Source: a virus
Lineage: Duplodnaviria; Heunggongvirae; Uroviricota; Caudoviricetes
Virus record (IMG/VR): IMGVR_UViG_2851949629_000008
Span: 1 to 45,030 of that record
Strand: one strand, 5' to 3'
Length of the DNA stretch: 45,030 nucleotides
Positions 25,669 to 40,500 of this stretch are shown one piece after another. Every line of letters starts with the position of its first letter. Positions within the stretch are counted from its first letter, which is position 1. Below the pieces are notes generated by a model, which was given only the letters and a program-made list of their open reading frames with translations, was not told where the DNA came from and made no database searches. The translations under genes were made by a program, and so were the position numbers.

Positions 25669-25884
25669 TTACTCTCCCCGTGCAGCCTTACGCTTGTCTT
25701 CTCTGATTTTGAAGTACAGATTTGTCAGATAAGTCAGGAAGCCCAGAATCAGACTCCCCAGTACACCAATCGCAGCCCACTGTGACGGACTGACCTGATC
25801 AAGCCACTGTAAAAACCAGTAGCCAGCACTGCCTGCGGAGGTGCCATAGGCAATGCCCGTTGAAATTTTGTCCATGGATTTCAT
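25669..25884 (-). CDS. S: Pinholin S21-like (dual-start MKSM...)
   Basis: [63 protein letters not shown] matches phage-21 S / EssQ. Confidence 0.9.
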
Positions 25885-26176: not shown

Positions 26177-26251
<75 letters not shown>

Positions 26252-26254
26252 ATA

Positions 26255-26330
<76 letters not shown>

Positions 26331-26332
26331 AC

Positions 26333-26409
26333 TGGACCGCCACCGGGGACTCGAACCTCGCACACTCAACTTAAAGGGTTGACGCTCTTTCCTGATGAGC
26401 CAGTGGCGG
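26333..26409 (-). tRNA. tRNA-like gene, anticodon loop CCUUUAA (UUU, Lys-type; C33 is noncanonical)
   Basis: 77 nt, 7-bp acceptor stem, T-loop TTCGAGT, CCA end; one A-C mismatch in the T-stem. Confidence 0.4.
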
Positions 26410-26410
26410 T

Positions 26411-26486
26411 TGGTGGCCCTTGCTGGATTTGAACCAGCGACCTGGCGATTATGAGTCGCTCGCTCTCACCACTGAGCTAAAGGGCC
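26411..26486 (-). tRNA. tRNA with CAU anticodon (Ile2/ileX-like or Met)
   Basis: GGCCCTTTAGCTCAGTGG...CTCATAA...GGTTCAAATCC resembles E. coli ileX as recalled. Confidence 0.7.
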
Positions 26487-26604: not shown

Positions 26605-26640
26605 ACAAAAAAACCCGCTTGTGGGCGGGTTTTGTTTGCT
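26605..26640. terminator. Bidirectional intrinsic terminator hairpin downstream of the Q-like gene (tR' candidate)
   Basis: ACCCGC-ttgtgg-GCGGGT stem-loop flanked by an A-run upstream and a T-run downstream, so it is U-tailed on either strand. Confidence 0.5.
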
Positions 26641-26684
26641 TTTGCCATCACGTACAAAATCGGCAAAATATCAGATTTGCATGA

Positions 26685-26713
26685 AATATATGCCTTTCAA
26701 TCTGCTTTTGCAA
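26685..26713 (-). promoter_or_regulatory. Candidate late promoter (pR'-like) overlapping the 3' end of the Q-like gene
   Basis: Minus strand TTGCAA-17 nt-TATATT; by-eye sigma70 match only. Confidence 0.3.
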
Positions 26714-27386
26714 CACTTTGCTTTGAAAATGCCGCCTTTTGTTTTGAACGTGTTCTCATTACAAACAATAAAGCCTCACTATCCAGTCGGTGAAAAATGT
26801 GTTTCATTGCAACCCAGTGACGAGTAAATGTTTTGGACCAGTTTTTAGTTGTCACTCCCGCCAGTAATGCCAGCTCCTGGTATTCATAACCTTCCCCACC
26901 AAAAAGTTCTGCTTTTACTTCCTGCGCCGCCAGCCAGATTAATTTTTTCAGGCGTTCCTGCGTTTTCCCTGCAATTTTTCTGGTACCGGATTGAGTATTA
27001 AATTCATTCCACGCCCACTGTGTTATCGCGATCTGATATTCCCAACAAATACTCCCGCTGTAACACCACAACAACCAGGCTTTATGATGTTCTTCAAGAG
27101 ACAGAACCGCCCGCCGCCACGATGATGTCGAAAACTCAACCGGACTGACCAGAGGAATTGACGTCCCCTTCGCCAGCGATTGCTTTCCCGGGATTGGTGG
27201 ATTATCCCGCGTTATCATTTTTCCAGTCACTTCATCGCGGTACCGGATTTTTTTACGCCTGTAACGCCCTGTATCAAACATGGCATTCTCCTGCCAGGCC
27301 TCAAGCTGCCCTTTTGTTGATCCACTCAAATCGGCGGTGGCAATCATGAGTTGCTCACGAACAAACTGTAAATACTGGTTATTCAT
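26697..27386 (-). CDS. Putative late antiterminator Q (QuuQ-type family)
   Basis: 229 aa directly upstream of the tRNA cluster and lysis cassette, downstream of rusA; assignment by position and recalled family resemblance. Confidence 0.45.
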   Translation of the reverse strand: MNNQYLQFVREQLMIATADLSGSTKGQLEAWQENAMFDTGRYRRKKIRYRDEVTGKMITRDNPPIPGKQSLAKGTSIPLVSPVEFSTSSWRRAVLSLEEHHKAWLLWCYSGSICWEYQIAITQWAWNEFNTQSGTRKIAGKTQERLKKLIWLAAQEVKAELFGGEGYEYQELALLAGVTTKNWSKTFTRHWVAMKHIFHRLDSEALLFVMRTRSKQKAAFSKQSVAKAD

Positions 27387-27742
27387 GCATACTCCAGTTC
27401 TGTGATTTTTATCCCCAACCGCCCACCAGGAACAAGCTGACCGCGCACAATATTAATTTCATCAAACTGCTCGTCGTCTATGAGCAGCCCCGCATGCGTC
27501 AGTACATCCAGTGGTGCCTTCAGGATATTGTCCAGGTCACGACGGCGCTTATCCGGTGGCTCTGCAATAATTTCTATTGCCGGCCTTCCGGACAGGTTTA
27601 ATTTCAGTTGCTGCTGGCGAACAATAAGCGCCACATCACGGCGATAACGCTCACCGACTTTTGATACAAAATATGTGCTGCCACGGCGTCGCCAGTAAGT
27701 GTTCACCGTCGGCGGGTAAGGTAAAACCAAATCTATGAGCAT
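27383..27742 (-). CDS. rusA: Holliday junction resolvase RusA
   Basis: PDKRRRDLDNILK... motif and ~119 aa length match RusA. Confidence 0.9.
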   Translation of the reverse strand: MLIDLVLPYPPTVNTYWRRRGSTYFVSKVGERYRRDVALIVRQQQLKLNLSGRPAIEIIAEPPDKRRRDLDNILKAPLDVLTHAGLLIDDEQFDEINIVRGQLVPGGRLGIKITELEYA

Positions 27743-27754
27743 CAGTCACCTCTT

Positions 27755-28804
27755 TTACCCAAGCACGCCAGTTGCAAAGGCGTGATCAAGAAAACGAAAA
27801 ATTAAATCAACCTGAGAACCATGCTTTTCTTCGAACGCCAGCGGATCCGCATGAAGCTCGTTGTGATGCTCCCGACACAGCGGTAGCGTGAAAATATCGT
27901 GAGATTTTGTCCCCATTCCGCCCTGACCATGACCAATCAGGTGATGGGGATCGTCGGCTGGCTTACCACAACACGCACACGGCTGTGTCTTCACCCAGCG
28001 TGTGTATTTCTCGTTAACCCAGCGGCGACGTTTAGGTCGTTTCATGAAAGATTCCGGAGACTCAGGATCAACGGCAATGCTGACCACCGTCTTTTCCTGT
28101 GGTGGGTTCTGTTGCTGGTGGACGTGAGGCAGTAACGCAATATTTTTTGTGCGCTGCTTCAGTATGCTGGTGGCTGTCTGCTCTCCCGGTACGATGTCGC
28201 TTTCACGGTACATTGAGCGGATTTTTTCCGCACGCAACCCCAGCGAACGACGTAATACCGCTTCCGGTAGCGCGTCCGCCACCTGATTGCGGACCGCCCA
28301 CCAGGATAATTCAGCCAGAGATAATTCACGCTCCTGCGTACCGCTTATTGCGTGACCGATGACGTCAATCATCCATGCTGACAGGTTTTGATGAGCAAGT
28401 TGCTCGAGTGATTCGGATGTCTGGTCACGCAGCTGGTTGTCGCAGTGCCAGCACAACACCATTGCGCCGGTACCATAACGGTGAATGACGGTTTCGCTGT
28501 GATGATAATCGCCGTGTGGCCACTGGCAGGATTTAATATGGCGCAACAGCCAGTCAGACAATGCACCAGCACCACCAGCAGCACGAATCACCCGTGCGTT
28601 ACTGAAAAACGGCAGCAATGTTTTGTCTTCCACTAGCGGCTGGCGAACGGCAGGAACGACCCCGGACGGCAGATTACGCATGCTTTTCGGTTCCGGCTCC
28701 ACCAGTACCCGGGTATTGTGGAATACCGGCATGGATTCACGGCCCGGCTTAACGATCACCAGCCCGAGTTCCGGTACCAGAACAGGTCGAAGTAATACCC
28801 GCAC
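27755..28804 (-). CDS. DUF968-type nin-region protein (YdfU-like) with C-terminal HNH-like motif
   Basis: 349 aa; C-terminal CACCGKPADDPHHLIGHGQ...CREHHNELH; located upstream of rusA. Confidence 0.55.
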   Translation of the reverse strand: MRVLLRPVLVPELGLVIVKPGRESMPVFHNTRVLVEPEPKSMRNLPSGVVPAVRQPLVEDKTLLPFFSNARVIRAAGGAGALSDWLLRHIKSCQWPHGDYHHSETVIHRYGTGAMVLCWHCDNQLRDQTSESLEQLAHQNLSAWMIDVIGHAISGTQERELSLAELSWWAVRNQVADALPEAVLRRSLGLRAEKIRSMYRESDIVPGEQTATSILKQRTKNIALLPHVHQQQNPPQEKTVVSIAVDPESPESFMKRPKRRRWVNEKYTRWVKTQPCACCGKPADDPHHLIGHGQGGMGTKSHDIFTLPLCREHHNELHADPLAFEEKHGSQVDLIFRFLDHAFATGVLG

Positions 28805-28805
28805 G

Positions 28806-29138
28806 TTACCTCCAGATGCGTTGCTGGAATGTGCGGGACGGACGCGGTGGGCGTTCGGAGTAAGGAAGCCTGACGGAGATTATCCAGTGACGATAATCGA
28901 GACTGAGGGCTTTCTTAACCTCGTATCCGCGCCTGCGGTAACACTGAATCAGCCATTCAGCCTGTTCTTCGGTGCAGGGGTCGTGCTGATACCAGTCAGA
29001 TTTGAATGCATGAGAACGCCGCCCGTGCCTGCTGGCAAAGACGGCTGAATTATCAGAATTGTATGGTTTGGTATCGTGCGCCATCTGTTTTCTCTGCTGG
29101 CGCAGCAGGTGCCAGTTGTTCAGGCTGGCGTGCGGCAA
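28806..29138 (-). CDS. Hypothetical phage protein
   Basis: ORF abutting the DUF968 gene; no family assignment. Confidence 0.3.
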   Translation of the reverse strand: MPHASLNNWHLLRQQRKQMAHDTKPYNSDNSAVFASRHGRRSHAFKSDWYQHDPCTEEQAEWLIQCYRRRGYEVKKALSLDYRHWIISVRLPYSERPPRPSRTFQQRIWR

Positions 29139-29156
29139 TATTGTCTCTGATTTCTG

Positions 29157-29184
29157 TTGTCGTCAACAGGCAGCGTGCTATCAT
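29157..29184 (+). promoter_or_regulatory. Candidate promoter of the parDE-like operon
   Basis: TTGTCG-16 nt-TATCAT about 35 nt upstream of the antitoxin ATG. Confidence 0.3.
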
Positions 29185-29219
29185 CGAATAGTGTTCTATC
29201 CTACTCCGTGAGGTTTACC

Positions 29220-29477
29220 ATGCGTACAACCCAACAATTCAGCATTACATTAACTAACGAGATGGCTGACATGGTGCGCGCCCGTGTGGCTTCCGGTGCC
29301 TATGCTTCAGAAAGCGAGGTCATTCGTGAAGGGCTTCGCGCACTGAATGAGCGCGATAAAGCAATCGAAGCGTGGTTAACGCATTCAGCCGCCCCCTCTC
29401 TTGATTCTATCCGCGAAAATCCAAACAACGGACGCTCCATTTCACAGGTTCGCGCCGCGATTCGATCCGGGAAGTAA
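29220..29477 (+). CDS. parD: ParD-family (RHH) antitoxin
   Basis: MRTTQQFSITLTNEMADMVRARVASGAYASESEVIREGLRALNER is a ribbon-helix-helix ParD-like signature; SD GAGG upstream. Confidence 0.8.
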   Translation: MRTTQQFSITLTNEMADMVRARVASGAYASESEVIREGLRALNERDKAIEAWLTHSAAPSLDSIRENPNNGRSISQVRAAIRSGK

Positions 29478-29482
29478 TCTGC

Positions 29483-29782
29483 ATGACATTTGAAGTCATC
29501 ATTACCCCCGAGGCCGAACAGCAGATAATAAACCTGCACGGATATATAACGGAGAAAGCAGGAAGCGTCATTGCTGACAATTATGCCAATGCGCTTCTTG
29601 ATTATCTTGATGGGTTTTCTACATTCCCACATCGGGGCAATAAACGCGATGATATTCGCCAGGGAATGCGAGTAACTCACTTCCGCCACAGAACGATTAT
29701 TGCTTTTGCCGTTGATGGCAATAAAGTCTTTATCGCTGGCGTTTACCATGGAGGGCAAAGTTATGAATCTGACTTTTTATAG
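29483..29782 (+). CDS. parE: ParE/RelE-family toxin
   Basis: 99 aa, 5 bp downstream of the antitoxin; ParE-like size and pattern. Confidence 0.75.
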   Translation: MTFEVIITPEAEQQIINLHGYITEKAGSVIADNYANALLDYLDGFSTFPHRGNKRDDIRQGMRVTHFRHRTIIAFAVDGNKVFIAGVYHGGQSYESDFL

Positions 29783-29843
29783 TTTATATTTTCACTAACA
29801 AAAAACTTAAATAACCAAGAAATACTTATAAAAGGGCTTCTAA

Positions 29844-30197
29844 ATGAATAAAACAATTTGTTTTCTATTGGTTTTTGCAATTTCAGGATGCGTCAACCCT
29901 TATAACTACAGAGAAGAACAAAATGTTATTATCTCGTTCAAAACAAATTCTCCACCACAAGAAATACAAGAATGCATTCTCAGTGAGTGGCAGCGTACAC
30001 CTCTCTTAGCCACTATCACGTCTCAAAAAATTGGCAAGTATTACAGCGTATTAGCGGTTGCAGATAATGCCGACATTTATAAGTTGGCAGATGGTTCTAC
30101 TATCATTGATTTTTATTCCCTTCGAGGGGTCTTAGACCCCACCAATGGGAAAAGCAAGAGGATTCAGGGAATTAAATCATGTATTAGCACTAAATAA
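29844..30197 (+). CDS. Small lipoprotein, paralog of the 7453-7791 lipoprotein
   Basis: MNKTICFLLVFAISGC lipobox; shares N-terminus, a central E-x-x-C-I-x-x-x-W motif and C-terminal Cys with the other lipoprotein; AT-rich; terminator hairpin at 30271-30300. Confidence 0.6.
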   Translation: MNKTICFLLVFAISGCVNPYNYREEQNVIISFKTNSPPQEIQECILSEWQRTPLLATITSQKIGKYYSVLAVADNADIYKLADGSTIIDFYSLRGVLDPTNGKSKRIQGIKSCISTK

Positions 30198-30301
30198 TCA
30201 TCAGTTCGAACCCAGAAACAGCCAAATAGATTTTATCTCAGGTGCGTTGAGGATGCCTGACACATCAGAGGTGGCGAGGGATTTCTCCCTCGCCTGGTTT
30301 T

Positions 30302-30457
30302 TTACTTCTCAGATTCGTAGGCTACGAAGACAGCGACCTCCGTCTGGCCGGTTCGGATTCGTACCTCGCAGAGGTCTTTCCTCGTTACCAGTGCCGTCAC
30401 AATGACGGTTAAACAGATGACGATAAGGGCGATTAACATCGCCTTTTGCTGCTTCAT
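30302..30457 (-). CDS. hok: Hok-family type I toxin (51 aa)
   Basis: MKQQKAMLIALIVICLTVIVTALVTRKDLCEVRIRTGQTEVAVF... is near-identical to HokD/RelF as recalled. Confidence 0.85.
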   Translation of the reverse strand: MKQQKAMLIALIVICLTVIVTALVTRKDLCEVRIRTGQTEVAVFVAYESEK

Positions 30458-30557
30458 AGCCTGCTTCTCCTTGCCTTTCGGCACGTAAGAGGCTAATCTT
30501 CAGTTGTCGAGACATAAGACTGGCCTCACTTTGTACTGACCCCAAAAAGTTGGACAG

Positions 30558-31409
30558 TTAAACACGAGGCATATAGGTCTGATTCCGATATTCAATTGGA
30601 GTCAGACCTTTTAATTTCAGGCTAATTCTTCTGCTGTTGTAGTATTCAATATATTCCGTAACAGCATCCTTCAGTTCGCTTATATTACTGAACTCATCAA
30701 GATAAAAACACTCCGACTTTAAGGTTCCAAAGAAACACTCCACCACAGCATTATCCAGACAATTGCCTTTTCTGGACATGCTTTGTTTAATACCATGTTC
30801 TTTAAGGATATTTTGATATCTTCTCATACGATACTGCCATCCCTGGTCAGAGTGCAGAACAGGATGCTCGTGAGGATTAAGCTTTTTGAATGCCTGATCG
30901 AGCATATTCTCAACCATGTTCATCACTGGTCTTTCCGAAAGGCTGTAAGAAATAACTTCGTTGTTGAAGAGATCTATTACTGGAGACAAATACAGCTTGC
31001 GCCCATTGACTGCAAATTCAGTAACATCGGTAACCCACTTCTCGTTTGGCCGCGTAGCCTTGAAATCTCTTTGGAGAACATTAGGGGCGGTTTGCCCTAC
31101 CTCTCCTCTGTAAGAGCGGTATCGCTTGACCTTAATCGCTGCTTTAAGTGAGAGGGTTCCCATCAGGCGCTGAACAGCTTTATGGTTAATCTGTTTCCCT
31201 TCTCGATGAAGAGACAGCGTTACCCTACGGTATCCGTATCGGCCTCTATTCTCGTGATAAATCTCACTAATACGCTTTTTAACGTCCGCATACTTGTCAG
31301 GCTTGCTGAGAGCCTTTAGATGATAATAAAACGTACTGCGCGGTATCTCCGCAGCCCTGAGAAGCTCATCAAGAGGATAAAACTGCCTTAGCTCGTTGAG
31401 TACTTTCAC
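30558..31409 (-). CDS. insK: IS150 transposase OrfB (InsK, DDE)
   Basis: 283 aa IS3-family integrase-core ORF. Confidence 0.9.
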
Positions 31410-31927
31410 TTTTTCGTGGGATGAGCTAAGGCTTTCAGCTTTTTTAGATACATAAGCCGCGTTTCAAGAAATCGAACTTGCCTTTCAAGATCCTCAATGC
31501 GTCGGTCTTTTGACAGCTCCAATGCTGATGCCGCTTTTTCTGGATCAACTGATATTGCAATGTTTCTTTTGGTGCCAATCTTGAGCGCGCGTAAACCAGC
31601 TTCTCCGCGCTCTTCATAGACCTTCAGCCACCTGGCTACAGAACCACTACCAGCAAGCATAAAGTGAGCAGCAGCCTGATTAAGGGACATGTGCTGCTCG
31701 ATCACAGCTTTCACGACCTTAATACGCAACTCTGGATCAGCACTAACGCCTTTAGGTTTGGGAATTAAACCTTTTTCTCCATGTTTTTCATAGAGGGCAA
31801 CCCATGTCCTGACCTGGGTTCGGGGGACACCAAAACGTGCCGAGATGATCCTGTAACCATCATCAGTTGTGAAGTAGTGATTCACGACTTCAAGGCGCTT
31901 TTCAAAAGGGTATTTTGGCTTTGACAT
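31406..31927 (-). CDS. insJ: IS150 OrfA (InsJ, HTH)
   Basis: 173 aa; overlaps orfB. Confidence 0.9.
   Translation of the reverse strand: MSKPKYPFEKRLEVVNHYFTTDDGYRIISARFGVPRTQVRTWVALYEKHGEKGLIPKPKGVSADPELRIKVVKAVIEQHMSLNQAAAHFMLAGSGSVARWLKVYEERGEAGLRALKIGTKRNIAISVDPEKAASALELSKDRRIEDLERQVRFLETRLMYLKKLKALAHPTKK
31422..31428 (-). promoter_or_regulatory. IS150 -1 programmed frameshift heptamer AAAAAAG
   Basis: Minus-strand A AAA AAG at the orfA/orfB overlap, as expected for IS3-family transframe transposase. Confidence 0.6.
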
Positions 31928-32236
31928 ATTAGGGGCTATTCCATTTCATCGTCCAACAAAATGGGTGCAGTACACTTCGATTTATAGTCGGGTGGGGCTT
32001 TTCTCTATCTGCCTTTTGGTGTTCATGCCTGAGACAGATAGCCTCAAGCACCCGCAGCAATTCTACTTATGACGCAATTTAATGACAACAACTCTACAGC
32101 GGTAGTGTGTTTAACTATTGACATTGATTAACTCATTATTCAAAATTTTTGCGTACGCATTAATGATTTTGTGTCGTTGTTGTGATGGTAAAAAAATCAC
32201 AAACGATCTAACAATAACATAGGTGATATTTTCAAT

Positions 32237-33377
32237 ATGGAAATTAAGCAAGTTATCGTTCATGAACTAATTAAAGAAGCAAAAAAGGATTTTGATTTTT
32301 CTAAGCCGTATCAGCTTAGATCCACTCCTCTCGATAAAACCAATCCAATTGTTATAAAACTTATTCAAGACATTTCATCTTTATATGGAACCAAAGGCAA
32401 TTCTGCACATTATGGCGTTTTTAAAGAGGAGAAAACAGAACAAGGGCCTGTGCCATCAATATTTGAAGAGTATTCTCAGTCAGAGGATAACATTAATGAA
32501 AAGTTTGTGCCTTTTTCTATTGAAGTGATGAAGCAACTTGTAAAAAAAGCCAAAGAAGAACCTTGGTCATCTGGTGGTTTTATTGTGTTTTGTGACTATA
32601 TTGTAAATAACAATAAATTCTTTTTAATTGCAATGATTAAAAAGAAAAATGGTGTTACTATCAGCAACAAACTCGAACCTGAAGAAATGATCCATTTGGA
32701 TCTATCCAAAATACACCAAGCAGCAAGAATAAATTTCAATCTCTACCAACAATATAAAACTGCTGATGAGTCTGAAAAAATTGACTTAAGTTATCTAAGT
32801 TTCGTAAGTAAAGGAGTGGGTCAATCCACATCAGCATATTTTATTGCAGCAATAGGATGCGACAAATCACTTGCAGCAGCAAAAGCCACAAAAACTACCA
32901 ACTGTCGCAAAACAATTTTTTAACCAAAAACCAGAACTTAAAGCATGTGCCAATAGATTTAAACATGACGTTATTGCATATTTAGACACACAAGCAGCTA
33001 AAAATTTGTCAGCCCGATTGAGTGATATTGAAGTAATTGCAGCACGTCACATGACAAATTTAGATGAGTCTACCAAAGAATCTTACACTCACGAATTAAT
33101 TCTTTTTTTAAATAGTGAAAATGTGAGAATCCCAACTGAATTTGTTATCAGTAAACGGGCGTTGAAAGACATTAAAAACATCACCTTTAAGACTGATGAG
33201 ATTGGATTTAATTTTGACAAGTCTCTCCTTGGAGTGACAGCTGATGATGATGTGTGGTACGATGAAACAACTGGAAGATTATCATTTACAAACTTACCAG
33301 CTGAATTTAAGGCTAAACTAAGCGCTGTGGTAAAAGAAAATTTAAAAATAAGGGATAGTGGAAAAGAAAATGGCTAA
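32237..33377 (+). CDS. NdpA/YejK-like (NA37 family) nucleoid-associated protein homolog, interrupted by an apparent +1 frameshift near 32889-32893
   Basis: N-terminus MEIKQVIVHELIK and GGFIVFCDYIV align with E. coli YejK as recalled (INQIALHQLIK, GGFVLFCHYRY); track splits it into 32237-32923 and 32871-33377 (the latter with a TTG start); AT-rich. Confidence 0.55.
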
Positions 33378-34590
33378 TTTATCAACGGTTGTAGATTTTT
33401 ATAGAGCATCATCGAAGCCCCAATTCGACGGACGTTCTTTTTCTGCAACTGTTGAAATAAATAATAACAATCAACGTTTGGTAAACTTGTTAGTAAATTC
33501 ACATAAAGCCTACGGTTATTTTGAAGATGTTGATATTAATAATGAGTTCATTGACGAAGACGATTTAAAATCACACCCAATTAAAATTGGAGATAAATTC
33601 TCATACACTTACATATCCCCTAAAAATGGAGCAGAACGTTTCTATAACTCAATTCAAGAGTTCCTTTGTATAAACTCACTCAAGAAAGGTGTAATTCCTA
33701 AAGAGTATTACATAATCGATGAGGATTTTCATCCGTCTGATTCAAGTAAACCGGACGAAATTATAAAAATCGAGAAAATTTGTGCAATTATTTCTTCCCT
33801 GGCTGAGATTGCGCACTTTCACGATACAAAATCGGAATCTTCAAATTATCGTTTAGTTTTCGTGAAAGATTCTGACGCAAAATCAACATCTATTATTTTA
33901 GAAACGTGCATTACACCTAAGATGCTCAATATAAATGACATTGATGATGCTATCATCAAGAGTCTTTTAGATGTAAAAAACGCCCAAATCCCCCATCAAG
34001 CAGAAAAAACAGGTATTTTCAGGAATACCATAGTGGAGTTTATTCTCGATAACAAATATGATTTTGAAAACCTAATTTGCCATTGGGATAAATTTGTAAA
34101 GCTATTTGAAAATAATTTATCCACGTATATGAGTGGTTTTTCATTCCATAAGGCACGAAAAGAAATTGCGAAGTCTGAAGCAGAGTTTGCTGAAAAAATC
34201 TCAAAACTTATTACTGATTTGACGACAAAAGTATTATCAATCCCTGTGTCTTTACTGGCATCCTTCGGGATTATAAAACTAACATCAAGATCTGAAATGT
34301 TACTCGTTTTATTAGGTGTATTGTTAAGCTCACTTATTTTATATATGGTATTACTCAATCAGGATAAACAATTAAAACATATTTATCATGCTAAAGATAT
34401 AGCATTTATGCCTTTTCTAAAAAACAATGAAAATTATCCAGAAGACCTTAAGAAGGACATTAATGAGGCTCTATATGAACTATCAAAGAGCCAAACCAAA
34501 TGTGATAATACAATAAAGTTATTTATGTATTTGGCTTGGCTACCAAGTTCTATTGCAGCAGGAATATTTCTTGTGAAGATTTTTATTTAG
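33358..34590 (+). CDS. Large AT-rich protein with two C-terminal transmembrane helices (candidate membrane effector)
   Basis: 410 aa, no recognised domain; hydrophobic segments LLVLLGVLLSSLILYMVLL and LFMYLAWLPSSIAAGIFLVKIFI; overlaps upstream gene by ~20 bp. Confidence 0.5.
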   Translation: MEKKMANLSTVVDFYRASSKPQFDGRSFSATVEINNNNQRLVNLLVNSHKAYGYFEDVDINNEFIDEDDLKSHPIKIGDKFSYTYISPKNGAERFYNSIQEFLCINSLKKGVIPKEYYIIDEDFHPSDSSKPDEIIKIEKICAIISSLAEIAHFHDTKSESSNYRLVFVKDSDAKSTSIILETCITPKMLNINDIDDAIIKSLLDVKNAQIPHQAEKTGIFRNTIVEFILDNKYDFENLICHWDKFVKLFENNLSTYMSGFSFHKARKEIAKSEAEFAEKISKLITDLTTKVLSIPVSLLASFGIIKLTSRSEMLLVLLGVLLSSLILYMVLLNQDKQLKHIYHAKDIAFMPFLKNNENYPEDLKKDINEALYELSKSQTKCDNTIKLFMYLAWLPSSIAAGIFLVKIFI

Positions 34591-34599
34591 CTCTAACAG

Positions 34600-35127
34600 T
34601 TAGAGCATTAATACTCCCTCCAATACTCCCATCGCTGCTTGTATTTTTTTTCTAATAGTCCCATCCGCACATTTCTTTCTTTTTGCGATCTTTCTCAAAG
34701 AAACGCCTATTACAAAGTGGGCAACAATTAACTCATATTCATCTATTTTATATTGTCTGAGTCTCAATATCCACTCATCAATCACTCGCCCTTCATCATC
34801 GCTGCTCTGGCGACGCAATTTTTTACCATGAGGCACAACATCTTTATATTTATCAGCCACTTGCTGCCAGTTGATAGAACTATTTCCAGCTACAGCCCAA
34901 GCTCCCCAACAGTCCAAAATATCATATATATTAGCATTGCTATCTACCTGTTTTTTATATTCTTTTTTGAAGCGAGCAAGAAGCATCCTGGCCATCGTTA
35001 TTATTTCTATACTTGTAACTGATTCATAAGCATCAGGAGAAATAATCCTCCCATCACTTAATGCCCTTTCACTAAGATTTGCTATTTCCAATAATCGTTC
35101 TTTAGTTATTTCCATTATTATCTCCAC
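34600..35127 (-). CDS. Antiterminator Q-like protein (QuuD/phage-82 type)
   Basis: LDCWGAWAV...NWQQVA and LIVAHFVIGVSLRKIAKRKKCADGTIRKKIQAAMGVLEG resemble DLP12 QuuD as recalled. Confidence 0.6.
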   Translation of the reverse strand: MEIIMEITKERLLEIANLSERALSDGRIISPDAYESVTSIEIITMARMLLARFKKEYKKQVDSNANIYDILDCWGAWAVAGNSSINWQQVADKYKDVVPHGKKLRRQSSDDEGRVIDEWILRLRQYKIDEYELIVAHFVIGVSLRKIAKRKKCADGTIRKKIQAAMGVLEGVLML

Positions 35128-35229
35128 CGCCCTTTCGGGCGACCTCCTGATGCTCTGAGGGTGCAGAAATCCCTCCGGTTAAGGATTAAATTTTATTTAC
35201 AGTGCTGGATTTAATTATTCAGATTTGGA

Positions 35230-35505
35230 TTATGCTTTCTCTTCACTCCGGTATACAAGAATTACAACGTCACCTCTGCTAATCACGCGAGCTGGCTCTC
35301 CTGGTTCTATACTGTCAATATCGAAGGTCTCAAAAAACGCATTCATTGCCTTCTGCCGCTGCGTCTGTTTACAGCGTTTATTCCATTCTTTCAGTAACAT
35401 CAGTGACAGCCACCGCCATGAGCAGAACATGATGTAGCACCAACCAAGAAGCGCCAGCCCCGTATTGAGGGCCGTACCAATCGTCATTGTTGCGTCGATA
35501 TTCAC
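35230..35505 (-). CDS. Hypothetical small protein
   Basis: 91 aa ORF with a hydrophobic N-terminal region, in the nin-like region. Confidence 0.3.
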   Translation of the reverse strand: MNIDATMTIGTALNTGLALLGWCYIMFCSWRWLSLMLLKEWNKRCKQTQRQKAMNAFFETFDIDSIEPGEPARVISRGDVVILVYRSEEKA

Positions 35506-37968: not shown

Positions 37969-37986
37969 TGTTTTAAAATCAAAACA
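37969..37986. promoter_or_regulatory. Candidate operator (TGTTTT-N6-AAAACA) in the cI/cro intergenic region
   Basis: Inverted repeat TGTTTTaaaatcAAAACA ends at the cI start codon; a related site lies at 38691-38708. Confidence 0.35.
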
Positions 37987-38624
37987 TGAGCAAGCAAACT
38001 ATATCTGAACGCATAACCCAACGTATGCATGCGCTAAACCTGAAAGGCAAAGACCTTGTCAATGGCACTGGCGCATCAAAAGGCTCCGTAAGTCAATGGA
38101 TGAACGGTGGAGGAGCGCCGTCCTCGCGTTACATAAGTTCACTGGCAAAAATATTGAAAGTAAACGAAAATTGGCTTCTTAATGGAGGAGAGTTAAATAC
38201 AGGTGATTCGCTTGATCTATCTTTACCGCCGATAAAAACGGTTCCGCTACTATCACTTCAGCAGGCAGCAAGCTGGAGTGATTATATGAAAAATTCCTCA
38301 ATAACCTCTTGTGTGCAGCTTGTCGGAGAAATCCCGGTCAATACCTTTGCAGTTGTTCTAGAGAGTGACAGTATGTCAACATCTGGTGGGGGAGTTTCCA
38401 TCCCAAATGGTTCAACAGTTTTTGTTGATCCCGATCGAACCGTACAACCAGGAAATATTGTCCTTGCCTTACCCAAAGGGACCACAACACCTGTCATTCG
38501 TAAACTGGAGATAGAAGGGCCGGATATTCTTTTAGTCCCCACGAATCCTCGCTACCCTTCAATTATGCTGGATGATCTATCTTGCATATTGGGCGTATGC
38601 TTTAAAATTCAACAAGATATTTAA
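37986..38624 (+). CDS. CI-like repressor (HTH plus S24 LexA-like peptidase domain)
   Basis: N-terminal HTH; C-terminal S24-like autocleavage domain; 212 aa. Confidence 0.8.
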   Translation: MSKQTISERITQRMHALNLKGKDLVNGTGASKGSVSQWMNGGGAPSSRYISSLAKILKVNENWLLNGGELNTGDSLDLSLPPIKTVPLLSLQQAASWSDYMKNSSITSCVQLVGEIPVNTFAVVLESDSMSTSGGGVSIPNGSTVFVDPDRTVQPGNIVLALPKGTTTPVIRKLEIEGPDILLVPTNPRYPSIMLDDLSCILGVCFKIQQDI

Positions 38625-40151: not shown

Positions 40152-40500
40152 GGGTCAGGTGGAGTGCGTGCGCCGGACACGGGTGAACATCCGGCACTGA
40201 CAGTTTACTGAAAGGATATGTCCCTGAAAAGTCAGGGCATAACGCGAAAGCGCACGGCGAAATTGGTCTCTCTGTACGGTGTCGTTAAATTTAGTTCGAC
40301 CGTGCGCTTCCGGTTGTGGCAATCCGCGAAATGGCGCGGCGGTAAGTATGGCGGGGTTATTCCTTCCCCGTTGAGGACACCGGGTTGTCAGGTTGACCAT
40401 ACGCTTAAGTGACAACCCCGCTGCAACGCCCTCTGTTATCAATTTTCTGGTGACGTTTGGCGGTATCAGTTTTACTCCGTGACTGCTCTGCCGCCGTTTT
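40152..40500 (+). ncRNA. Candidate structured noncoding RNA region (GC-rich, multiple hairpins)
   Basis: Stems CCCTGA/TCAGGG, CCGCG/CGCGG, GGGTTGTCA/TGACAACCC, GGCGG/CCGCC followed by GTTTTTAAAG; ORFs here are Arg-rich and implausible; strand is uncertain. Confidence 0.3.

Follow-up and report, generated by a model that had tools for sequence, protein, structure and literature searches.

A candidate series of two Q antiterminators, and a slot for anti-phage genes between a Q gene and its putative site, in a Rac/Qin-like prophage of Escherichia coli

The window analysed here is the whole viral record IMGVR_UViG_2851949629_000008, of 45,030 nt, which reads as a prophage on the (−) strand, with the early genes at high coordinates and the late genes at low ones. 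Its best DNA matches were all in Escherichia coli and, because DicF, YdaT, DUF977, hok, DUF968 and RusA are present as a set, its gene content places it as a Rac/Qin-like lambdoid prophage of that species. Q antiterminators are textbook single-copy late switches, described directly upstream of their own promoter. This prophage carries two Q-type genes, here called Q1 and Q2, and between them lie a gene pair on the opposite strand, a hok locus interrupted by IS150, a ParDE block and the nin-type genes (Table 1). The initial annotation had called the two Qs unrelated, which was borne out by profile searches that returned PF06530 for the open reading frame (ORF) at 34600–35127 and PF06323 for that at 26697–27386. 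These profiles correspond to the Q21 and Q82 families, respectively, which have a common function and no sequence similarity (PMC9388147). All promoters mentioned below are consensus matches only.

Q1 matched PF06530 (Phage_antitermQ) with an E-value of 4.6e-30 and 104.4 bits (cut-off 26), over residues 66–174 of the ORF starting at 35127 and positions 3–111 of the 118 in the profile, and it also matched PHROG 79, 'anti-termination protein Q-like' (E 1e-30). All of its homologues begin at the ATG at 35115, which gives 171 aa, and not at the GTG at 35127. Judged by these profiles, Q1 is a member of the Q21 family, and the PDB sequence of phage 21 Q gave a weak direct match to it (E 0.004). An AlphaFold2 model built from 51 homologues had a pLDDT of 78.7 overall and of 85–93 over residues 61–160. 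When this model was searched against PDB with Foldseek, the top 12 matches were all Q21 (6p1c; best E 9.8e-4, probability 1.0, TM 0.48–0.59), with extracytoplasmic function sigma region 4 structures ranking after them; the Q21 structures were the only significant matches, and their strength was moderate. With that moderate strength, the model points to a Q21-type fold with a sigma-region-4-like helix-turn(loop)-helix core.

Matches to Q1 in the phage collection were all restricted to residues 66–175, and the best ones were QuuD-like proteins of about 113–115 aa, referred to here as short Qs. A protein search recovered a clade of long Qs of 170–185 aa from E. coli and Salmonella with a common N-terminal stretch of 62 residues, an extension unique to this lineage and conserved down to 64% identity. 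Long and short forms are 56–59% identical over 110 residues and have in common a helix-turn-helix (HTH)-like segment, SLRxIAK..C.DGTIRK; further along Q1, past residue 104, one His and one Cys are invariant. A long Q was present in 67 of 5426 complete E. coli genomes, and a peptide-pattern scan of the genome contigs with Q1 gave no confirmed relatives. Pairwise comparison of four diverged alleles yielded ratios of nonsynonymous to synonymous substitution rates (dN/dS) of 0.18–0.32 at dS of 0.37–0.78, and of 0.12–0.27 for the Q domain alone, values which indicate that the long Q is under purifying selection. The ratio for the whole gene argues against Q1 being a stranded relic, and since dS reaches 0.78, the alleles do not descend from one recent clone. 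Synonymous divergence was several-fold lower in the N-terminal 62 codons (34930–35115, dS 0.06–0.36) than in the Q domain (34600–34930, dS 0.5–1.4), which suggests either recombination breakpoints inside the gene or constraint at the DNA level on its 5′ end. It was also observed that the C-terminal tail of the long Q appears to differ with the type of cargo.

The stop codon of Q1 lies 9 nt from that of the convergent cargo gene, and just beyond the start of the cargo, on the Q strand, stands a single 12-mer, GCGTACGCAAAA. It was found by comparing the window with the region upstream of stx1A in the Stx1a phage Stx1_14040, in which the sole match (E 0.006) fell just beyond the start of the NA37 gene. 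In all fetched loci that have a Q of this subfamily, each module contained a single 12-mer, always on the Q strand and just past the cargo; a tandem prophage (L141) had two copies, one per module. Three loci without such a Q lacked it, among them mEp460, in which PD-T7-1 fills the equivalent slot.

In the short-Q phages, a TAnnnT hexamer follows GCGTACGCAAAA after exactly 7 nt in all nine distinct sequences, the leader GTTAAGAGTGGTYACTT.G.CAC comes next in seven of them, and most have an intrinsic terminator, with holin/lysozyme genes or stx1 next wherever the downstream sequence suffices. Given what follows it, the 12-mer lies in the spacer and −35 region of the short-Q late promoter, which is where Q-binding elements are expected (10.1101/651190). 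GCGTACGCAAAA is thus a candidate Q-binding element, and its strict co-occurrence with this Q subfamily is the sole evidence for that role.

The stretch between the Q gene and the 12-mer was then surveyed in IMG/VR. A scan with a 14-mer gave mostly chance matches, with a Q in 13 of 119, and was superseded by a 23-base composite of the 12-mer and leader, which matched more than 120 viral contigs, 95 of them with a short Q upstream on the same strand. In these 95, the distance from the Q stop codon to the 12-mer was 629–3756 nt (median 1594), and the gap was never empty. All ORFs of at least 80 aa lay on the opposite strand in 88 gaps (154 kb of ORF bases against 7 kb on the Q strand overall), and the cargo fell into 47 protein clusters and 29 operon types; since these contigs are redundant, with many near-identical E. 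coli prophages, locus counts overstate the independent events, and counts of operon or module types are safer. One of the cargos was KwaB (E 2e-150), and because a small membrane partner adjoins it, that locus is assigned to Kiwa. Others were NsnA/PD-T4-2_A, PDC-S60, PDC-S33, an SDH/ClpP-like protease, a HEC-04/OLD-type ATPase beside a gene for a 346-aa partner, and further NA37 pairs, and the same cargo types were found beside long and short Qs. The gap therefore has the features of a prophage defence hotspot, namely a fixed slot, conserved flanks and many unrelated cargos including known defence systems. Given in addition that the cargo is confined to the opposite strand at nearly all loci, the comparison indicates that the QuuD-like branch of the Q21 family has, in this gap, a hotspot into which anti-phage systems are swapped.

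In the window, it is firmly supported that this hotspot is occupied by the NA37 pair. The initial annotation had proposed that cargo was captured at the boundary between Q and the late operon. This held for the pair, called there the NdpA cassette, which sits at the Q-to-promoter boundary with the 12-mer just beyond it, as in the short-Q gaps that are always filled; it did not hold for the island as a whole, which is a composite of one hotspot cassette, an IS150 with its own 3-bp duplication, the backbone gene hok and a separate replacement of 56 bp by ParDE and a lipoprotein gene.

The first gene of the pair encodes a NA37/YejK-like sensor and the second a 410-aa protein, the two overlapping at 33358–33377. 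Relative to an intact 380-aa copy in strain 602354 (L001), the NA37 gene is broken by a 2-bp deletion in an A7 run near 32889 (32885–32892), together with one substitution; it is probably a pseudogene in the window, and the frameshift could represent either a very recent pseudogenisation or a homopolymer sequencing error. The 410-aa protein has an acidic N-terminal part (residues 1–290, pI 5.45) and hydrophobic segments at about 312–335 and 388–410, and neither Pfam nor PADLOC searches matched it. NF053868 scored 101 bits (cut-off 330, E 6e-29) on the intact L001 copy, and NF053869, 'DS1_2_antiphage', scored 105 bits (cut-off 315, E 4e-30) on the partner. A bicistronic arrangement of a YejK/NA37-like protein and a partner with an acidic N-terminus and a C-terminal membrane part is the architecture of PANGU-II/DS-1 systems, which the window pair displays with matches below equivalog level and with its sensor frameshifted. 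The YejK domain is among the defence domains newly validated by DefensePredictor (PMC13092281). PADLOC 2.0 matched no model in the window cargo and gave nothing significant for the cargos of E2348/69 and L006; the 159-aa partner in L006 gave no more than a weak RexB-like hint (E 1.5e-3).

The order around Q1 is recurrent. DUF977, with or without small genes, is followed by the long Q, one to three genes on the opposite strand, GCGTACGCAAAA, hok, the nin-type genes, a second Q and the late genes, and this order was seen in E. coli and Salmonella with at least eight cargo types and three families of second Q (DUF1133, PF06323 and PF03589). The NA37 pair is found, intact and with a 406-aa second protein in strain 602354, and also in Salmonella, ahead of a DUF1133 second Q, as are the NA37 + 477-aa cargo of KE55, in a Rac-like prophage beside trkG, and the 309 + 182-aa cargo of E7-1N7; the three-gene cargo of E2348/69 goes with a PF06323 second Q, and DUF6731 + 159 aa, in many E. 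coli isolates, with PF03589. From a survey in which 80 viral contigs were retrieved, 27 had a long Q. The 12-mer was present, and hok came next, in all 26 with enough sequence; of the 21 whose downstream sequence reached 4.5 kb or more, 20 had a second Q; and a DUF977 match lay within 1.5 kb upstream of the long Q in all 27 except L268. The unit ends about 50 nt upstream of the hok promoter, and the hok mRNA leader began 96–101 nt from the 12-mer in four module types, 72 nt from it in one and more than 200 nt from it in two. In the four types at 96–101 nt, the first 50 nt or so beyond the 12-mer are unrelated in sequence (loci L261, L268, L271, L277 and L319 compared).

The long-Q unit sits at the end of the replication module, and because of this placement it stands ahead of the nin genes and of the true late Q; it is without the leader and terminator that follow the 12-mer in the short-Q phages. 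In fact, the elements expected beside a Q21-family gene, an adjacent promoter, a pause element, a terminator and late genes, were not found at Q1. Its candidate site is 2.4 kb distant; neither the conserved leader nor, within 100 nt, a terminator follows it, and hok comes next instead of late genes. These comparisons give firm support to the long-Q unit, consisting of a Q with its 62-aa extension, cargo and 12-mer, as a displaced and selected copy of the cassette formed by Q, hotspot and site. GC content is 0.29–0.39 over 32000–35250, a span comprising the 12-mer, the cargo, the long Q and its leader, against 0.50–0.55 in the flanks, which is consistent with the import of one unit; no single complete genome of the collection compared contained more than 58% of the 9.5-kb region. 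In E. coli O8:H49 (L141, 6179–13320) and in L142, a long and a short Q of the same family stand in tandem; in O8:H49, each has its own convergent cargo (161 + 273 aa, and a 221 + 130 + 350-aa trio) and an identical 12-mer, and the leader and terminator are present only at the second copy.

Q2, in turn, matched PF06323 (Phage_antiter_Q) with an E-value of 4e-92 and 308 bits (cut-off 25) over profile positions 1–217 of 220, as well as PHROG 304, and it is 74% identical to a phage 434 gene annotated as 'Q82-like'. A promoter-like site, TTGCAA-17-TATATT (26713–26685), overlaps its stop codon, a −10-like GATATT lies a few bases into the transcript as a candidate pause element, and a strong intrinsic terminator, CCCGCCCACAAGCGGG plus T7 (26633–26605), follows 64–92 nt beyond the stop. 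The order of promoter, −10-like repeat and terminator matches that of phage 434, in which the terminator is annotated, element for element. Q2 thus shows the context of the Q82 family, an adjacent promoter, a −10-like element and a terminator followed by late genes, with the pause itself predicted. It had been stated in the initial annotation that this gene came after DUF968-rusA and directly upstream of the tRNAs and the lysis cassette; the coordinates confirm this position, in which Q2 is placed to drive the late genes, and the 434-like unit with the lysis genes next agrees with that role. The block from hok through DUF968, rusA, Q2 and the tRNAs to the lysis genes is about 91% identical in two phage records, vB_EcoS-689R5 and vB_EcoM-606R7; these share the replication genes of the window but lack Q1. 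Because of the unit conserved with phage 434 and of this shared module in Q1-less records, the view that Q2 is the late switch of the prophage is firmly supported by sequence comparison.

Table 1. Features of the window, listed from the early to the late end of the prophage.
Feature	Position	Strand	Basis or remark
DicF RNA	40445–40496	+	Rfam, 72.5 bits; in leftward early operon
S24-type repressor	37986–38624	+	early end; Cro-like gene also there
YdaT, replication organiser, DUF977, DUF4406, DUF4752	between repressor/Cro end and Q1		listed in prophage order
Long-Q leader	35116–35234	−	about 110 nt, two small hairpins and ribosome-binding site; alignment, blastn
Q1 (long Q)	34600–35115	−	Q21/QuuD-family domain (residues ~62–171) with 62-residue N-terminal extension
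410-aa Pag2B/DS1_2-like effector	33358–34590	+	NCBIfam NF053869, below cut-off; PHROG 5023
NA37/YejK-like sensor (Pag2A/DS1_1-like), two ORFs	32237–32923 and 32871–33377	+	PF04245 on both halves
12-mer GCGTACGCAAAA	32147–32158	−	one copy in the window; candidate Q-binding element
Predicted cargo promoter TTGACA-17-CAAAAT	32118–32146	+	10/12 consensus matches; −10 abuts 12-mer; prediction only
hok promoter TTGTCA-17-TAGAAT and 5′ mRNA leader	31975–32088	−	consensus and alignment
sok (RF01794)	31898–32053	−	Rfam, 82.6 bits
IS150	30532–31974	−	1443 bp, ends TGTACTG...CAGTACA, ORFs of 173 and 283 aa
mok/hok toxin ORF	30302–30484	−	Pfam HOK_GEF, E 6e-23
ParDE and lipoprotein block	29135–30240	+	Pfam; joints against relatives
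ParD	29157–29477	+	
ParE	29483–29782	+	
Lipoprotein	29844–30197	+	low GC
nin-type genes	27383–29138	−	next three rows
110-aa PHROG 1212 protein	28806–29138	−	
DUF968	27755–28804	−	Pfam
RusA	27383–27742	−	Pfam
Q2	26697–27386	−	Q82-family antiterminator, Pfam PF06323
Q2 late promoter unit	26605–26713	−	consensus match; conserved with phage 434
Four tRNAs (Met, Lys, Thr, Gly)	26177–26486	−	
Second intrinsic terminator	25969–25954	−	after tRNAs, before holin
S21-type holin	25669–25884	−	then DUF1327, lysozyme, Rz

The explanation that accounts best for these results, to which a probability of about 0.5 is given, is that the prophage carries two Q cassettes in series, a canonical one around Q2 and a displaced one around Q1, possibly connected by a relay. 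In such a relay, the early operon, interrupted by the convergent cargo, would make the long Q after induction, and the long Q would bind the 12-mer and load on RNA polymerase starting there. In this way, transcription would resume beyond the convergent cargo and run through hok, resisting the post-hok terminator (replaced in the window by the ParDE/lipoprotein block), until it reached DUF968-rusA-Q2, which would amount to a two-step Q relay and would also occlude the overlapping cargo promoter. The relay step is favoured by what this family is known to do, by a fold and a DNA-binding segment that are retained, by a site on the correct strand and in the correct position, and by the terminator downstream in relatives; taken on its own, it is put forward tentatively, as less likely than not.

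Several observations weigh against the relay step or call for caution. The short-Q leader GTTAAGAGTGGTYACTT, which presumably provides the start site and the pause element for Q loading, was found in none of the 26 long-Q modules, and in these the −10-like hexamer stands at no fixed distance from the 12-mer. The long-Q-less loci L003–L005 carry the same post-hok terminator and downstream genes, and for that reason a relay would not be obligatory; being present with and without the long Q, this terminator was uninformative as a discriminator. Moreover, mEp460 has convergent cargo and no long Q. Where Q1 meets the cargo, the search for a canonical terminator turned up nothing more than a 7-bp inverted repeat spanning the stop codons, and neither strand has a U-tract. 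Residue 104 of Q1 (34804–34806) is Ser in the window allele and its closest relatives and Cys in at least 90% of long and short homologues, a change that may reflect relaxed constraint in this sublineage. Finally, GCGTACGCAAAA contains a palindrome, GCGTACGC, and overlaps the predicted cargo promoters, so that it could serve the cargo rather than Q. A broader formulation, in which the long Q is a repurposed Q acting either as the first tier of a Q-to-Q relay past an early-operon defence cassette or as a switch tying induction to the activity of that cassette, is possible, if doubtful. If it were true, the Q gene, the swappable cargo and the Q site would form a portable unit, and recombination into the defence hotspot would use the regulator and its site as flanks.

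The alternative that survives best, although unlikely, is that the long Q no longer antiterminates and has become a Q-derived DNA-binding regulator, which would act through the 12-mer on the divergent cargo promoter or on hok; an abortive-infection cargo could, for example, be switched off when the prophage goes lytic. The 12-mer is invariant in at least eight long-Q module types, in which the leader and terminator are lost in all 26 cases and the −10 drifts; in all loci, 51–95 nt separate it from the start codon of the first cargo gene; and the long Q has a family-specific N-terminal domain. The complement of the 12-mer reads TTGCGT with a TAnnnT 17–18 nt later in 9 of 17 modules, among which are 5 of the 7 long-Q types, and in the window the predicted cargo −10 abuts it. 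However, the geometry between 12-mer and cargo adds little, since it is identical in the short-Q phages, whose 12-mer is clearly part of the late promoter; the TTGCGT-TAnnnT pattern is absent from the window's own PANGU-type module; and repression would leave defence proteins that had already been made in place. A search for a fixed −10/−35 geometry around the 12-mer in long-Q modules gave no consistent result, as the cargo direction fits only those 9 of the 17 modules and the Q direction varies. To our knowledge, no Q protein acts as a classical repressor, which also counts against such a regulator.

It is improbable that the 12-mer has nothing to do with Q and travels with the cargo as a promoter element, an operator or a recombination anchor, associated with Q through physical linkage only. 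Its constant distance to the cargo start would fit such an element, as would its palindrome, GCGTACGC being unlike the direct-repeat Q-binding element of Q21 (10.1101/651190). Nevertheless, it is identical across 29 unrelated cargo operon types, it is missing where the same slot holds cargo without this Q (PD-T7-1 in mEp460), and in the short-Q phages it keeps its fixed 7 nt to a TAnnnT that faces the late genes.

Still less probable is a one-off mosaic junction, in which Q1 would be a functionless leftover, the cargo would have dropped between an old Q and its late operon, and Q2 would have come with a new late region. The unrelated families of the two Qs, the foreign composition of the block, the lack of a promoter or terminator adjacent to Q1 and the decay in this copy (the frameshift, IS150 and the Cys-to-Ser change) are what it would predict, and the initial annotation had indeed postulated a single recombination joint. 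Comparison with related prophages did not support such a joint, as the order recurs in both species with differing cargos and second Qs; the dN/dS at high dS, the conservation of the N-terminal extension and the retention of the 12-mer in all modules point the same way, and recurrence and selection together largely refute the junction. That both Qs act on the late operon, redundantly or cooperatively, as two intact ORFs on the prophage strand might suggest, is scarcely credible given their unrelated families, the phage 434/82-type promoter region of Q2 and the single 12-mer of the 45 kb, which is not near that promoter; for want of a 12-mer there, action of Q1 at the Q2 promoter was rejected.

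The remaining features of the island concern the backbone and its decay. The convergent orientation that the initial annotation had ascribed to the whole cargo applies to the NA37/410-aa pair (32237–34590, +) and to ParD/ParE/lipoprotein (29157–30197, +), but not to IS150 and hok, which are on the (−) strand. Moreover, hok had been counted as cargo and proved to be conserved backbone, following the hotspot in all long-Q prophages with enough sequence. IS150 interrupts the hok leader by a simple insertion: three target bases, CTT, are duplicated when compared with the empty site of L001, and the element is annotated as IS150 in relatives. Its length, two overlapping transposase ORFs, inverted repeats and duplication are those of IS150, a member of the IS3 family. 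The insertion splits the hok promoter and leader from the ORF, and the hok/sok locus is therefore not contiguous. The sok match extends past the junction and covers about 75 nt at the near end of IS150, and for this reason the Rfam sok model seems to include an IS150-hok junction of this kind. In K-12, hokA too has an IS150 next to it, an arrangement that would suggest repeated insertion at this site. Since the cargo sensor is frameshifted and IS150 splits the hok locus, parts of the window module are read as decaying.

The ParDE/lipoprotein block replaces 56 bp that in relatives hold the post-hok intrinsic terminator, which reads in the prophage direction. This post-hok position varies as well, as a smaller second slot. 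In vB_EcoS-689R5 it is filled by another gene, of 130 aa; in E7-1N7 (L145, 12336–15361), hok and the nin genes are separated by genes for the methylase and specificity subunit of a type I restriction-modification system, which would be further defence cargo in the slot where the window has ParDE. The DUF968 gene is annotated as a Q in mEp460 records, which was rejected as a mis-annotation. At the other end of the region, the long-Q leader also precedes unrelated early genes in phages without a long Q (L004, 11188–11294; L005, 11018–11124; 87–89% by blastn). One of its hairpins keeps its pairing in Salmonella through a different sequence, the other is CGCCC-GAAA-GGGCG, and no U-tract follows; an Rfam search around Q1 and the leader gave no match. 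An IS009 RNA family match (Rfam, 129 bits) was noted at the start of the window, 41–244 (−).

Two related phages extend the range of this slot. In mEp460_ev081 (L003, 10188–11537), PD-T7-1 (PADLOC E 4e-157) occupies the slot of the long-Q module, with the replication genes on one side and hok on the other, but neither the Q nor the 12-mer is there. In Stx1_14040 (L021, 7243–11529), a convergent three-gene operon (350, 130 and 220 aa) lies between the sole Q and stx1AB; the trio is homologous to the long-Q cargo of E2348/69, has no Pfam matches, and is a candidate defence system in a Shiga-toxin phage.

These results altogether describe one large Q subfamily in which gene and promoter are always split by cargo, coded, in 88 of 95 loci, only on the opposite strand. 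This provides the lambdoid phages with a defence hotspot that is easy to recognise by its flanks, a PF06530 Q gene on one side and GCGTACGCAAAA on the other, and as it holds Kiwa and also PD-T4-2-like and PANGU/DS-1-like genes along with many uncharacterised operons, it would be a practical place to mine for new anti-phage systems. In Rac-like prophages, the early region holds a paralogue of the cassette that is under selection and precedes a second Q, which raises the possibility of serial Q control or of a coupling between induction and prophage-borne abortive-infection systems. For annotation, genes for 'antiterminator Q family protein' of about 171 aa should not be read as the late-gene switch. 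By sequence, both Qs are ordinary members of known Q families; the split between Q and promoter as a hotspot, its 12-mer, the long-Q form and the two-Q series appear to be undescribed, no description of them having been found in the literature searched.

Compared with the Q21 family (phage 21 Q, and QuuD/YbcQ of DLP12), Q1 has the same full-length Pfam domain, predicted fold and HTH-like segment, but it differs in its 62 extra N-terminal residues, in its place after the replication genes and not after DUF968/rusA, and in having no late genes next. The Q21-family unit is defined as a Q gene followed by its own promoter, a sigma-dependent pause element, a terminator and the late genes (10.1101/651190), whereas the candidate site of Q1 is without leader and terminator and Q1 is only distantly related to Q21 itself. 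Q2 resembles the Q82 family (phages 82 and 434) in its identity to 434 Q, its downstream elements and its position before the lysis genes, and differs from phage 434 in the insertion of four tRNAs and a second terminator between the promoter unit and the holin. Under the relay reading, an early antiterminator would license transcription of the gene of the next one, as in the N-to-Q cascade of lambda; however, N acts at RNA nut sites with host Nus factors, whereas both steps here would be of the Q type, loaded at DNA sites. No N gene or nut site was identified in the window, in which no systematic search for them was made.

Accessory genes around the junction of Q and the late promoter are likewise known from the Q/late promoter/stx region of Stx phages and from quuD-nmpC-essD of DLP12. 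Stx1_14040 has a short Q of this subfamily as its only Q, followed by the convergent trio, the 12-mer and a terminator, as in the short-Q arrangement. The initial annotation had equated the position of the cargo with that of the Stx genes, which did not stand, as the trio lies between Q and the 12-mer/terminator and stx1AB comes after them on the late strand. The stx genes depend on Q and are read on the late strand, beyond the promoter and terminator, whereas gap cargo is upstream of the promoter and on the opposite strand; as read from this phage, the Stx slot and the cargo slot are adjacent but distinct.

As for the cargo, the window pair has the same two-gene architecture as PANGU type II, formed by the Pag2A NAP sensor and the Pag2B membrane effector (10.64898/2026.04.06.716658), and in comparison with DS-1 (NF053868/NF053869; DefensePredictor, PMC13092281) it scores about 100 bits against cut-offs of 315–330. 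Because these scores are far below the equivalog cut-offs, the pair is considered a relative of PANGU-II/DS-1 and not the same system. The hotspot itself is comparable to the temperate-phage defence slot described in 2022 (PMC9122126), with which it shares a fixed slot, conserved flanks and many unrelated swappable anti-phage systems; it differs from that slot in the type of phage, in having a regulator gene and its own putative DNA site as flanks, and in the duplicate of the slot that has moved to the early region.

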